A stretch of DNA of 64,000 nucleotides from Rugosimonospora sp. (GCA_035278125.1 DATEJJ010000852.1:757-64756), one strand, 5' to 3'; positions 37,395-63,535 are shown, counted from the stretch's first letter. Translations and numbers: made by a program. Notes: a model not told the origin generated them from the sequence alone.

Positions 37395-37412
37395 TCGAGC
37401 CTCGTTCGAGGC
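37395..37412 (+). promoter_or_regulatory. SARP-box candidate: TCGAGCC-N4-TCGAGGC upstream of GT-A
   Basis: Two heptamers at exact 11-bp phasing, read directly from the sequence. They lie 83 nt upstream of ATG 37495. TAGGCA and TAGCGT -10-like hexamers follow. Confidence 0.5.
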
Positions 37413-37494
37413 GACCATAGGCATAGCGTGCGGCTCCAGGCATCCGCGAGCGGCCGATGCGACGATTCCCGTCCGAACCCGGAGGAGCATCGGC

Positions 37495-38688
37495 ATGAAA
37501 GTGCTATTCACAACCTGGGCCTGGCGGTCGCACTACTTCCCGATGGTGCCGCTCGGCTGGGCATTCCTGGCCGCCGGCCACGAGGTCCGGGTGGCGAGCC
37601 GGCCCGGCCTGGTCGACGACATCACCGGCTCCGGCCTGCCGGCCGTGGCGGTCGGGCCGGACCTGGACTTCCAGACCGTCTTCCGGGAGCAGATCGGCAA
37701 TCCGCTCGAGCGGACACACGACGCCACCCAGAGCCTGAGCGAGATGCGCCGCACGGGCCGGCTGGAGCGGGTGCTGCGGGCGATCGGCGTGGCGCGACGC
37801 TACGCCGACGCCATGGCCGATGACATCCTCGCATTCGCGCAGACGTGGCGGCCGGACCTCGTCGTGTTCGAGCCGCTGAACATGGCCGGCCCGCTCGTCG
37901 GCAAGCTGCTGCGGGTGCCGACCGCGCGGCACCTGTGGAGCGCCGACTTCACCGGAGGTATCGGCGAGATCGAGGCGGAGGTGACCGCACCGCTGGCCGC
38001 GCGGTTCGGCCTGCAGACCCTGCACCTGCTCGGCGACGTGACGGTCGATCCGTGCCCGCCGTCGATGCAGACACCGGCTCCGGTACGGCGGGAGCTCATG
38101 CGGTACGTGCCCTACAACGGCCGAGCGATGGCACCCACCTGGGTGCTGGAACCGCCCGTGCGTCCGCGGGTGTGCCTCACGTGGGGCACGCAGACAGCCG
38201 GCATCGGCCAGAATGACCTGTTCCTCGTCTCCCAGGTGCTGGGGGCACTGGCCGGACTCGACGCGGAGATCGTGGTAGCGGTGACGCCGGAGCAACGCGC
38301 GCAGCTGACCGAGGTGCCGGCGAACGCACGCGTCCTCGACGAGCCGCTGGCCCTGCATCTGTGGGTCGGCACCTGTGACCTGCTGATCCATCAGGGCGGT
38401 TCGGGCACCACGATGACGTCGTTGCTCAACGGCGTGCCGAACCTGGTGCTGCCGCAGATCATGGACCAGGTGTTCACCGCGCGCCAGATCGCGTCCACCG
38501 GCGCGGGCCGGTATGTCCAGGGCAGCGAGGCCACCCCGGGGGTCGTGCGCGACACCGTCGTCGAGATGCTCGCCGACCGCCGCTACCAGCAGGCCGCGCG
38601 CGAGGTCGGCGACGAGATGCGGGCAATGCCGCCGGCCCCGAGCGTTGTCGCTGCGCTTGAGGGGTTCGCGCAGGCGTCGGCGAACTGA
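37495..38688 (+). CDS. GT1-family (macrolide/aromatic-polyketide type) glycosyltransferase A
   Basis: ORF 37120..38688. Start at ATG 37495 after GGAGGAG. N-terminus MKVLFTTWAWRSHYFPMVPLGWAFLAAGHEVRV. C-terminal HQGGSGTTMTSLLNGVPNLVLPQIMDQ. Confidence 0.9.
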   Translation: MKVLFTTWAWRSHYFPMVPLGWAFLAAGHEVRVASRPGLVDDITGSGLPAVAVGPDLDFQTVFREQIGNPLERTHDATQSLSEMRRTGRLERVLRAIGVARRYADAMADDILAFAQTWRPDLVVFEPLNMAGPLVGKLLRVPTARHLWSADFTGGIGEIEAEVTAPLAARFGLQTLHLLGDVTVDPCPPSMQTPAPVRRELMRYVPYNGRAMAPTWVLEPPVRPRVCLTWGTQTAGIGQNDLFLVSQVLGALAGLDAEIVVAVTPEQRAQLTEVPANARVLDEPLALHLWVGTCDLLIHQGGSGTTMTSLLNGVPNLVLPQIMDQVFTARQIASTGAGRYVQGSEATPGVVRDTVVEMLADRRYQQAAREVGDEMRAMPPAPSVVAALEGFAQASAN

Positions 38689-38694
38689 GGCGTA

Positions 38695-38720
38695 GCCGGC
38701 GCCAGCGAGAGATCGCCGGC
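38695..38720. terminator. Hairpin GCCGGCG-N12-CGCCGGC between convergent genes
   Basis: 7-bp GC stem read directly from the sequence. No clear U-tract. Confidence 0.25.
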
Positions 38721-38744
38721 GCGCGGGCTCCCCTCAGTGACTCC

Positions 38745-39773
38745 TCAGTCGCCGACGCCCGAGCGGCGCCAGGCGTCCGCGAGAGCGCGTACCGTCGCCC
38801 GCTGCTCCCCCTCGCCACGCGCCAGGACCGTGGCGCCCAGCGTTGTCACGCCGGCCTTGCGGTACTCGCCGAGCCGGTTGGCGACGCGCTGCAGCGGGCC
38901 GATGAGCGACACCTCGTCCATCAGTTCGACCGGGACCGCTGCGGCCGCGGCGCGCATGTCCCCGGCACGATGGCGCTCGTGGATCGCGGCCACCGCGTCG
39001 CCGTAGCCGAGGCTGGTGAACAGCCGCGCGTAGAAGTTCCGCGTAGCCTCGCCCATGCCGAGATAGCGTGCGAAGTAGTCCCGTACGCGATCGGCGCCTT
39101 CGGCGACCGTGTCGGCGATGCCGACCGGTACCGACGGCAACACCTCGAACCGGGAGCCGCGGCCGCCCGGACGACGACTGCGACCGGCCTCGATTTGCTC
39201 GATCGCGGCCGCGATACGGGCGGGCGAGGCGAACACGCCGATCCAGCCGTCGGCGATCTCCCCGGTCAGCCGGAGGCTCGCGTCGCCCACCGCGGCCAGA
39301 AAGATGGGAATATCCTGCCGCGCACCAGGTGTGTCGAGCCGGGCGGGCATCGCGCCCGCCGCACCGGGCAACCGGAAATGGCGCCCGGCGTAGACCACCG
39401 GCTCCCGGCTCAGTGCCAGCCTGACGATCTCGACGTACTCGCGGACGCGTTGCAGCGGCTCGGCGAACGGCACGCCGTACCAGCCCTCGCTGACCGCGGC
39501 ATTGGACACGCCGAGCCCGAGATGGAACCGGCCGCCGGACAGCGCGTCGAGCGTCGCGGCGGTGAGCGCCGCCATCACCGGCGTCCGGGCCGCCAGCTGG
39601 GCGACGCCGGTGCCCAGACCGATCGTGCCGGTGGAGGCGGCCACCGCGCCCAGCACGCTCATCGCGTCGGACTTGAATCCCTCCGGCGCCAGCGCCATCG
39701 CGTAGCCCAGCCGTTCGGCCTCGCGGGCCACGGCCGGTGCGGTCGAGTACGACAGAAACACTCCAAGCCGCAT
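38745..39773 (-). CDS. Luciferase-like (LLM class, probably F420-dependent) oxidoreductase
   Basis: ORF 38745..40244(-). Start at ATG 39773 (MRLGVFLSY) with GAGGAG 8 nt upstream. LLM pattern: FHLGLGVS, PIFLAAVG. Confidence 0.85.
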   Translation of the reverse strand: MRLGVFLSYSTAPAVAREAERLGYAMALAPEGFKSDAMSVLGAVAASTGTIGLGTGVAQLAARTPVMAALTAATLDALSGGRFHLGLGVSNAAVSEGWYGVPFAEPLQRVREYVEIVRLALSREPVVYAGRHFRLPGAAGAMPARLDTPGARQDIPIFLAAVGDASLRLTGEIADGWIGVFASPARIAAAIEQIEAGRSRRPGGRGSRFEVLPSVPVGIADTVAEGADRVRDYFARYLGMGEATRNFYARLFTSLGYGDAVAAIHERHRAGDMRAAAAAVPVELMDEVSLIGPLQRVANRLGEYRKAGVTTLGATVLARGEGEQRATVRALADAWRRSGVGD

Positions 39774-62398: not shown

Positions 62399-62399
62399 G

Positions 62400-63377
62400 T
62401 CAGGCTCCCATCCATGGTCCGGCCGGGCGACCGGCCTGCGCGAGCGGGCGGTGGCCGGTGATGGCGAGGAAGACGTCGTCAAGCGAGGGCCGGACCACCT
62501 GGATTGATCCGACGTCGACACGCGCGTGGTCGAGTGCGCGGGTCAGCGCGAACATGAGCCGCCCGGTGTGCTCGATCACCAGCCGGACCGTCTGCTCGTG
62601 CACGGAGATCTCCTGCACGCCGGGCAGCGCGGCCAGCGCGGCCCGGGCCTGCTCGACGGACCCGTTGACGTGGACGGTGACCACGTCACCCGACACCCGG
62701 TCCTTGAGCCGGTCCGGGCTGTCCTCGGCCACGATCCGGCCGTCGTCAACGATGAGGATACGGTCGCACAGCGCGTCCGCCTCGTCGAGATAGTGCGTGG
62801 TCAGGAACACCGTGGTCTGCAGTTCGTCGCGCAGCCGCCGGATGTGCGACCAGAGCTGGTTACGGCTCTGCGGATCCAGCCCGGTGCTCGGCTCGTCGAG
62901 GAACACCAGCGCCGGCCGGTGCACGAGGCCGAGCGCGATGTCCAGGCGCCGACGCTGGCCGCCGGACAGCGACCCCGCCATGCGCGGGAGCAGCGTCCCG
63001 AGGTCGAGCTGGGTGCTCAGCTCCCGTGCCCGCGCCTCGGCGTCGGCCCTGGACATCCGGTAGAGCCGGCCCTGGAGGATCAGCTCGTCGCGGACAACCG
63101 CGGACGGATCGGTGCCGCCGGTCTGCGCGACGTAGCCGATGCGACGCCGCACGCCGGTCGGGTCGCGCAGCAGGTCACACCCGGCGACCATGGCGGTGCC
63201 CGACGTGGGTCGCAGCAGCGTCGTGAGCATGCGCAACGAGGTGGTCTTGCCGGCGCCGTTGGGCCCGAGGAATCCGACGATCTCACCGGCCTCCACATGG
63301 AACGAGACGCCGCGAACCGCCTGTACATCGCCGTCCGGGGTCTTGAACGTGCGCGCGAGTTCAAGCGCCTCGATCAT
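62400..63377 (-). CDS. ABC transporter ATP-binding protein (DrrA-like)
   Basis: Start at ATG 63377 with GAGGGAGG RBS. Motifs: GPNGAGKTT, LSGGQRRRLDIA, LVFLDEPSTGLD. Confidence 0.9.
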   Translation of the reverse strand: MIEALELARTFKTPDGDVQAVRGVSFHVEAGEIVGFLGPNGAGKTTSLRMLTTLLRPTSGTAMVAGCDLLRDPTGVRRRIGYVAQTGGTDPSAVVRDELILQGRLYRMSRADAEARARELSTQLDLGTLLPRMAGSLSGGQRRRLDIALGLVHRPALVFLDEPSTGLDPQSRNQLWSHIRRLRDELQTTVFLTTHYLDEADALCDRILIVDDGRIVAEDSPDRLKDRVSGDVVTVHVNGSVEQARAALAALPGVQEISVHEQTVRLVIEHTGRLMFALTRALDHARVDVGSIQVVRPSLDDVFLAITGHRPLAQAGRPAGPWMGA

Positions 63378-63393
63378 CAGCCTCCCTCTCTTT

Positions 63394-63416
63394 GAGATTA
63401 GTCTCCGTAGACTATA
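63394..63416. promoter_or_regulatory. Operator-like GAGATTAGTCTC plus overlapping IR TAGTCT-N4-AGACTA, overlapping a minus-strand TATAGT -10
   Basis: Read directly from the sequence. Matches the palindrome at 35032-35043 at 11 of 12 positions. Lies 17-39 nt upstream of the DrrA-like start. Confidence 0.45.
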
Positions 63417-63492
63417 TGCCATCGGCGTCCCGTCCGTCGATACCCGACGTAAGACGACTTGCGTTATCTATCCGAAACATGGGCACCGGCGG

Positions 63493-63535
63493 TCGACGTC
63501 CGCTCAAGCAAGGCGCGACCCGGCCGGGTGACGAT
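63493..63535 (+). promoter_or_regulatory. SARP-type promoter candidate for GT-E: TCGACGT-N4-TCAAGCA-N4-GCGACCC-N8-GACGAT
   Basis: Read directly from the sequence. 11-bp phasing and an 8-bp gap. The GACGATGGCGTCG 13-mer is identical to the one in the minimal-PKS promoter. Confidence 0.5.

Follow-up and report, generated by a model that had tools for sequence, protein, structure and literature searches.

How much of a biosynthetic gene cluster is switched on by the one activator encoded within it? The question is raised by a 64,000-nucleotide stretch of 70% GC actinomycete DNA from Rugosimonospora sp. (GCA_035278125.1 DATEJJ010000852.1:757-64756; this whole stretch is called the window, and positions count from its first letter), in which a type II polyketide synthase (PKS) cluster includes the gene of a small activator of the SARP family. 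The answer proposed here is that nearly every transcription unit of the cluster has a SARP-type, activator-dependent promoter which the cluster SARP would switch on, a reading to which we give a probability of about 0.82. The circuit is conventional: a textbook SARP regulon in a new, uncharacterised cluster. A preliminary description of the same DNA had suggested such a regulon from heptamers related to TCGAGC(G/C) in exact 11-bp phase, followed by an 8-bp gap and a -10-like hexamer, at the promoters of two glycosyltransferase (GT) genes (GT-B and GT-E), of a luciferase-like monooxygenase (LLM) gene and of the minimal-PKS operon (minus strand, 51039-50997), with a further heptamer pair upstream of GT-A. 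Its interpretation is supported: the heptamers stand where it had placed them, and the geometry that it took from published SARP targets is borne out with sharp specificity for period 11 and spacer 8. Its assignment of the GT-A pair has been changed, and six sites have been added (56844+, 56822-, 51785+, 63518-, 37424+ and possibly 31787+).

Phased heptamers and a hexamer at a fixed distance

In published SARP targets, direct repeats follow each other at 11 or 22 bp and the 3′ one stands 8 bp from the -10 element (PMC10936776, PMC4393881), and heptamers of the form TCGAGXX have been reported for ActII-ORF4 and DnrI (PMC6510168, citing Tanaka 2007). Arrays of this kind were sought by scoring every position on both strands against three copies of the literature consensus TCGAGCS in 11-bp phase, with a maximum score of 21. 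Sheldon et al. reportedly gave TCGAGC(G/C) as the DnrI consensus in 2002. The three best of the 128,000 window positions (18/21 each) are 39836+, 56844+ and 63518-, and six of the seven positions scoring at least 16/21 fall in cluster spacers, which amount to 1.7 kb of intergenic DNA. These spacers hold six arrays scoring at least 16/21 and three scoring at least 18/21; dinucleotide shuffles gave means of 0.25 and 0.004, and none of 500 shuffles matched the observed counts. The pattern is not a general property of the sequence: over the whole window arrays are rarer than in its own shuffles, and coding DNA is depleted, not enriched. Among the 17 million positions of the 8.5-Mb genome only eight score 18 or more. 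Three of these lie in a 27-kb stretch of this cluster, and a fourth adjoins a 56%-identical paralogous SARP gene on another contig (C1182).

Both the phase and the distance to the core promoter are specific. Period 11 gave 15 arrays against 0-3 at each other period tested within 7-15, and the core TCGAG alone gave 19 against 0-2; direct heptamer repeats of one consensus thus recur at a spacing that would set them on one face of the helix. The spacer test, which is independent of the heptamer scan, asked where an xAxxxT hexamer follows the intergenic arrays scoring at least 14/21: eight did so at exactly 8 bp (N8) against 0-1 at other spacers from 3 to 14 (shuffle mean 0.12). Arrays with xAxxxT at N8 outside the spacers number two in 125,000 window positions. 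The -10-like hexamers have the general form (G/C/A)A(C)G(N)T, with only A2 and T6 invariant, and none starts with T; eight of the 11 are (G/C)ACG(A/C)T. No sigma-70-type -35/-10 pair was found in the spacers scanned between 34900 and 52000, a range that includes the LLM/GT-B spacer and leaves out those of GT-E/exporter and the second epimerase. Together with the lack of T-initial hexamers, this fits weak, activator-dependent core promoters like that of afsS. If the hexamer is numbered -12 to -7, repeats 3, 2 and 1 fall at -27 to -21, -38 to -32 and -49 to -43, respectively, so that the predicted box overlaps or replaces the -35 element of a poor core promoter, and its 3′ repeat ends 8 bp upstream of the predicted -10.

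The same motif emerges when no consensus is supplied. An expectation-maximisation (EM) motif search, set to a width of 43 and to one site per sequence, was given the 170-nt regions preceding 13 first genes and recovered the same register in 11 of them, with the consensus (T)CGAGnn cGCC TCGAGCG gnCC tCGAcCc GCngGcGc gACGaT G. Its log-likelihood was 170.4, compared with 117.1 +/- 4.1 (maximum 129) in 25 shuffled sets, or about 13 standard deviations above the null, and A at position 4 of repeats 2 and 3 occurs in 11 of 11 sites. With a leave-one-out position weight matrix (PWM), from whose training any overlapping opposite-strand partner was also dropped, all 11 sites ranked within the top 7-102 of 17.0 million genome positions. 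The full cluster-trained PWM finds only three positions of at least 20 bits outside this contig, none of them on C1182.

The arrangement also accompanies related activators in other genomes. The surroundings of the twelve closest SARP homologues (from Actinomadura, Kitasatospora, Streptomyces, Streptosporangium and Thermoactinospora), 240 kb in all, were scanned for arrays scoring at least 15 with an xAxxxT: 33 have spacer 8, and any other spacer has 0-6. Because certain loci in this set are related to each other, the 33 arrays are not independent events. Many of them form back-to-back divergent pairs. No N8 peak appeared in the rest of the Rugosimonospora genome (34 against 38-77).

The cluster SARP as putative activator

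The gene that the preliminary description had taken for a SARP is intact and encodes a protein with an OmpR-type DNA-binding domain (Pfam Trans_reg_C, residues 28-100) followed by a BTAD (107-248). By this N-terminal winged helix, the BTAD and a length within the usual 250-300 aa or so, it is classed as a small SARP. It aligns over its full length with EmbR (2FEZ, E 3e-34) and the SARP domain of AfsR (8HVR, E 1e-27). The DNA-contact residues described for AfsR (Q48, W74, P79, T88, R94 and K95) are on the whole conserved when the alignment is read against the AfsR structures (PMC10936776): W74, P79, T88 and R94 are identical as W55, P60, T69 and R75, and K95 and Q48 correspond to R76 and K29. 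The base-contacting specificity residue R92 is replaced by Q73, which fits a repeat sequence differing from that of AfsR. A public call of the protein (263 aa, in a second, 53-kb assembly) uses an internal GTG start and omits 34898-34961, which encode the first beta-strands (RFSVLGRLDV). The GTG at 34961 is preferred because the omitted strands align to EmbR, AfsR and close homologues. In the motif search the SARP gene's own upstream region showed no SARP box (best 6 bits).

From these observations we infer that the arrays are bound, that the cluster SARP is the protein that binds them, and that transcription is thereby activated from the start sites placed above. Each promoter would have two or three degenerate heptamers resembling TCGAGCS, spaced by one helical turn (11 bp), the two promoter-proximal ones covering about -38 to -21, the usual place of the -35 element. 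After the model of the AfsR transcription-initiation structures, a side-by-side dimer of the cluster SARP on these two repeats would present a protein surface, substituting for the -35 element, to sigma region 4 and the RNA polymerase core. The consequence would be the joint switch-on of 10-11 promoters serving tailoring genes, the minimal PKS, five glycosyltransferases, an exporter and sugar genes; at three of them the A of the ATG would be the transcription start, and the others would yield leaders of roughly 13-95 nt with a Shine-Dalgarno sequence.

Three known systems resemble this arrangement in different ways. First, DnrI (daunorubicin, Streptomyces peucetius) and ActII-ORF4 (actinorhodin, S. 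coelicolor) are likewise small SARPs inside type II PKS clusters. In their targets, too, TCGAGXX heptamers separated by 4 bp precede the -10 element (PMC6510168), and three-repeat sites occur at several promoters of the cluster (PMC10972967). The organism and the cluster are different here, no protein found exceeds 55-60% identity to the SARP, and the likeness is one of layout; moreover, repeat 3 often begins with G (GCGAnCS), and the sites are read from sequence. Second, OtcR of the oxytetracycline cluster of Streptomyces rimosus also governs a type II PKS cluster, controlling five oxy promoters together (PMC4393881). Its repeats are 11 bp apart and contain TCGA (CGGTCGAAG); the 5′ repeat lies over the -35, and 8 bp separate the 3′ repeat from the -10 downstream of it. 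The OtcR sites consist of two 9-nt repeats validated by reporter fusions, whereas up to three heptamers are seen here, at 10-11 predicted promoters of which three would be leaderless. Third, the SARP domain of AfsR on the afs box of afsS (PDB 8HVR, 8K60, 8JKE; PMC10936776) has the same fold, an OmpR-type DNA-binding domain plus a BTA domain. In the afs box the -35 element is replaced by two 11-bp direct repeats, spanning about -40 to -19, which correspond to repeats 2 and 3 here, where an extra upstream repeat is often present. The afsS -10 element, CACTGT, is a weak CAnnnT like the hexamers of the cluster (PMC10936776), and the sigma-adaptation mechanism is presumed to be common to both. AfsR itself differs in being a large SARP with NOD and TPR domains, in its repeat sequence, and in having R92 where the cluster SARP has Q.

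Several observations weigh against the proposed regulon. Exact-word autocorrelation of the spacers gives no 11-bp peak by itself, which is put down to the repeats being too degenerate. About half of the promoters have a poor repeat 1, which would be expected if the essential unit is a dimer bound to repeats 2 and 3. The arrays of LLM, GT-E (plus strand), the ABM operon and the second epimerase score only 13-14/21 by the literature consensus, and since TCGA is palindromic, arrays on one strand partly generate arrays on the other. The gene of a PTP-like phosphatase is, besides the SARP gene, the only transcription unit of the cluster with no recognisable box. Assigning the boxes to the 34107-34961 SARP goes by proximity, in a genome that has 31 BTAD hits and, on C1182, a very similar array. 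Finally, no orthologous cluster was found among 40 relatives, in a genome collection of 185,579 species or in a set of 5.8 billion proteins; the closest matches there were 55-60% identical for the SARP and 78% for KSalpha.

If the proposed regulon holds, a single small activator over essentially every operon offers a simple handle, as overexpressing the SARP in a heterologous host could switch the pathway on. The cluster comes from a fragmented draft genome with no close relative, and it would provide a ready-made collection of promoter parts under common regulation, including three leaderless ones. It is a statistically well-controlled in silico SARP regulon, and it shows how period 11, spacer 8 and the hexamer-N6-ATG rule can serve to predict promoters of SARP type, and start codons, in actinomycetes that have not been cultured; knowledge of SARPs in general is left unchanged.

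Weak arrays, other binders and other promoters

One alternative concerns the extent of the regulon: only some arrays may be functional, with the weak opposite-strand ones (LLM, the GT-E or the exporter reading, and the second epimerase) being by-products of the TCGA palindrome and their genes using other promoters. The low consensus scores of LLM and GT-E speak for this, both arrays being significant only together with the -10 geometry and the PWM, and so does the degree to which palindromic cores, TCGA or CTCAAG, interleave the divergent arrays. The LLM and GT-B arrays have two TCGA cores in common, repeat 1 of each being repeat 2 of the other, and the exporter and GT-E arrays overlap by 26 nt on opposite strands. 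Each weak array nevertheless has its own xAxxxT at exactly N8, outside the common part, and lies at a sensible distance from a Shine-Dalgarno sequence and start codon. Their ranks are still 11-79 of 17.0 million when the overlapping partner is dropped from the training set, the GT-E and PKS promoters have a 13-mer (GACGATGGCGTCG) spanning the -10 in common, and the scan up to 52000 found no other promoter-like site in the spacers that it covered, LLM/GT-B among them. On this evidence a regulon reduced in this way is unlikely, though it deserves to be kept in mind.

The two divergent pairs would also work differently from each other. The proximal dimer sites of LLM and GT-B (39822-39 and 39847-64) stand back to back and do not overlap. 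The exporter and GT-E arrays can be read as one three-repeat array (63490-63521) in either direction, of which the stronger, 18/21 minus-strand version faces the exporter. Here the central repeat is common to both, and under the dimer model a single DNA molecule could have either the resistance exporter or GT-E activated, never the two together, if both sites are real. If the array worked either way round, it would amount to a bidirectional SARP box, a single docking array aiming RNA polymerase either way, an idea that we put forward tentatively and with the odds somewhat against it.

A second alternative accepts the boxes and changes the protein: they might be bound by the C1182 paralogue, by another of the roughly 30 other BTAD proteins or by an OmpR/PhoB-type winged-helix regulator. 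Regulators of this last type also use 11-bp direct repeats. The paralogue is a small SARP encoded at 6596-7345 of its contig, with an array at about 5262-5310, 1.3 kb away, that reads TCGAACG/TCGAACC/TCGAAGC-N8-CATCGT on one strand and TCGAGGC/TCGAGAC/TCGAGCC on the other. It forms a second pair of SARP and box in the genome. The heptamer cores of related SARPs are alike, which makes cross-recognition plausible, and cross-talk between the two pairs is possible. Against a different binder stand the cluster SARP's position as the only BTAD gene on the 67-kb contig, the scarcity of strong PWM matches elsewhere in the genome and their absence from C1182, and the rule that cluster-situated small SARPs normally control their own cluster (PMC10972967). 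Binding by another protein is accordingly judged improbable, and the cluster SARP is preferred.

It is also conceivable, at very long odds, that an alternative sigma factor recognises the motif as its core promoter, TCGAGCG being the -35-like and GACGAT the -10-like element and no activator being needed. The unusual likeness of the hexamers would suit this idea, as would the lack of T-initial ones among them. What lies upstream is not a single -35 but two or three repeats with the helical period, and no sigma-factor gene was seen when the cluster genes were annotated with Pfam; SARP targets such as afsS have been described with weak -10 elements of the CAnnnT type (PMC10936776), and the same layout tracks SARP genes in other genomes. 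An origin in chance or high-GC composition is already refuted: heptamers like GCGAGCC are common in 70% GC DNA, and 146 window arrays score at least 14/21, but the shuffles, the depletion of coding DNA, the uniqueness of both period and spacer, the EM likelihood and the extreme genome-wide ranks all speak against it.

Promoters, genes and neighbouring features

The sites and genes are collected in the table. As the preliminary description had proposed for GT-B, where the hexamer ends 6 nt before the ATG, a leaderless mRNA is predicted, and two further promoters, those of the POT transporter and of the ABM operon, have the same hexamer-N6-ATG layout. Exactly these three genes have no Shine-Dalgarno sequence, and the remaining eight all have a leader and a Shine-Dalgarno sequence; transcription of the three is predicted to start at the A of the ATG. 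Public gene calls agree with the start codons of POT (51834) and the ABM operon (37371), and differ for GT-B: ENA uses ATG 39885 (386 aa), NCBI a start four codons later (382 aa). The same leaderless layout precedes glycosyltransferases (MRILF/MRILL...) in an Actinomadura locus (L021:4195, minus strand) and in L010 (698, minus strand), a 3.8-kb locus from the first search for relatives that lies outside the set of twelve homologues; the two belong to unrelated genomes.

Table. Predicted SARP-type promoters and the genes mentioned in the text; heptamers are written as repeat 1/repeat 2/repeat 3, distances run from the hexamer to the start codon, and SD stands for Shine-Dalgarno sequence
Feature	Position	Strand	Array or gene detail	Consensus score (of 21)	Leave-one-out PWM	Start of downstream gene
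GT-B promoter	39836-39878	+	TCGAGAC (39836-42)/TCGAGCG (39847-53)/GCGAACG (39858-64)-N8-CAACCT (39873-78)	18, joint best in window		6 nt to ATG 39885; no SD; predicted leaderless
LLM promoter	39808-39850	-	TCGAAGT/TCGACGA/TGGACCG-N8-GACGCT	13	14.0 bits, rank 26 of 17.0 million	34 nt to ATG 39773; SD GAGGAG
ABM/O-methyltransferase/TcmI-cyclase/ABM operon promoter	37378-37420	-	(CTATGGT)/TCGAACG/TCGACCG-N8-AACGCT			6 nt to ATG 37371; predicted leaderless
GT-A promoter	37424-37466	+	TAGCGTG/TCCAGGC/GCGAGCG (37424-52)-N8-GACGAT (37461-66)		25.3 bits	28 nt to ATG 37495; SD GGAGGAG
PKS operon promoter	50997-51039	-	TCCAGGA/TTGAGCG/GCGAGCC-N8-GACGAT	16	32.4 bits	34 nt to GTG 50962
POT-transporter/methyltransferase promoter	51785-51827	+	CGGATCG/TCGACCG/ACGAGCC-N8-CACGGT	16		6 nt to ATG 51834; predicted leaderless
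DUF1772/O-methyltransferase/GT-D operon promoter	56780-56822	-	TCCACCA/TCCAGCC/TCGACGC-N8-GACGCT		24.5 bits	20 nt to ATG 56759; SD GGAGGTGA
Epimerase/PEP-utilising enzyme/amidohydrolase operon promoter	56844-56886	+	TCGAGCG/TTCAGCA/TCGAGCC-N8-AAAGCT	18		82 nt to ATG 56969 (possible 54-aa reading frame); 236 nt to epimerase ATG 57123
DrrA/DrrB-type ABC exporter operon promoter	63476-63518	-	TCGCGCC/TTGAGCG/TCGACCG-N8-CATGTT	18		98 nt to ATG 63377
GT-E promoter	63493-63535	+	TCGACGT/TCAAGCA/GCGACCC-N8-GACGAT	14	21.5 bits	30 nt to GTG 63566; SD GAGGAGG
Second epimerase promoter, possible outlying member	31787-31829	+	TCGAGTA/GAGAGCG/ACGAGGT-N8-CACGAT	14	11.0 bits, rank 80 of 17.0 million	102 nt to NAD-epimerase/dehydratase gene at 31932
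SARP gene	34107-34961	-	small SARP activator, 284 aa			GTG 34961, GGGGGTG just before
GT-A gene	37495-38688	+	GT1 glycosyltransferase			
GT-B gene	39885-41045	+	GT1 glycosyltransferase			
GT-C gene	42293-43495	-	GT1 glycosyltransferase			
GT-D gene	54106-55242	-	GT1 glycosyltransferase			
GT-E gene	from 63566	+	GT1 glycosyltransferase			
DrrAB-type ABC exporter genes	61637-63377	-	Pfam ABC_tran, DrrA1-3_C, ABC2_membrane			
PTP-like phosphatase gene	51058-51750	-				

The pair TCGAGCC-N4-TCGAGGC at 37395-412, which the preliminary description had placed upstream of GT-A, is correct in sequence and position and does not form the GT-A promoter. Read on the plus strand it is followed at N8 by GCATAG, with the nearest TAnnnT at N11, and it was rejected in that role; on the minus strand it supplies repeats 2 and 3 (TCGAACG and TCGACCG) of the ABM-operon promoter. 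GT-A would be served by the array at 37424-66, which closely resembles that of the PKS operon (GCGAGCS-GCCGATSC-GACGAT). The PKS promoter begins 19 nt past the stop codon of the PTP-like phosphatase gene. The best candidate box for that gene (51750, minus strand; 18.6 bits) lies within the POT coding region and was not accepted. The weakest of the sites is 31787+, at 23.4 bits in the EM motif search.

Genes were called by codon bias and annotated with Pfam, and by these calls the cluster spans about 31.9 kb to the window end. It lies on a 67-kb contig of a draft genome in 1,186 contigs, and is an uncharacterised gene cluster for a glycosylated aromatic polyketide. Its PKS core comprises a cupin, KSalpha, KSbeta, ACP, cyclases and a ketoreductase, with the PKS operon in the order cupin/KSalpha/KSbeta/ACP/cyclase/.../P450s/GT-C/methyltransferase. 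Oxidative functions are represented by two P450s with a ferredoxin and by two DUF1772/anthrone-oxygenase-like proteins; further tailoring genes encode O-methyltransferases, ABM monooxygenases and the LLM, and there are five GT1 glycosyltransferases (GT-A to GT-E). The other units are the POT-family transporter with a methyltransferase, and the epimerase/PEP-utilising enzyme/amidohydrolase operon.

Some smaller features lie beside these genes. Downstream of the 56844+ array, the possible 54-aa reading frame (56969-57130) has the Shine-Dalgarno sequence GGAGGA, about 84% GC at third codon positions and no Pfam match. A tandem repeat at 56865-56931 (24-bp period, 2.8 copies, 81% matches) has a unit that copies the last SARP heptamer, the 8-nt spacer and an AAAGNN hexamer of the epimerase-operon promoter; its first copy alone is in 11-bp phase with repeats 1 and 2. 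A near-palindromic 15-mer, TTGAGA(C/T)TAGTCTCC, occurs just twice in the window (shuffle expectation 0.04): at 35031-35045, 70-84 nt upstream of the SARP start codon, and at 63392-63406, immediately 5′ of the Shine-Dalgarno sequence of the DrrA-type exporter gene. The pair looks like a single repressor operator that might couple activator and exporter expression, and a PadR-family gene lies at 31217-31759. Elsewhere in the genome, a 6-kb contig (C722) holds at least five TCGA-core heptamers in 11-bp phase at about 3766-3802, among the top genome-wide matches. In the gene-poor stretch left of the cluster is a tRNA gene (27752-27826, plus strand; Rfam tRNA, 44 bits), to which ARAGORN assigns no definite identity and in which it reads an anticodon of four bases (caca), the loop being one nucleotide too long.

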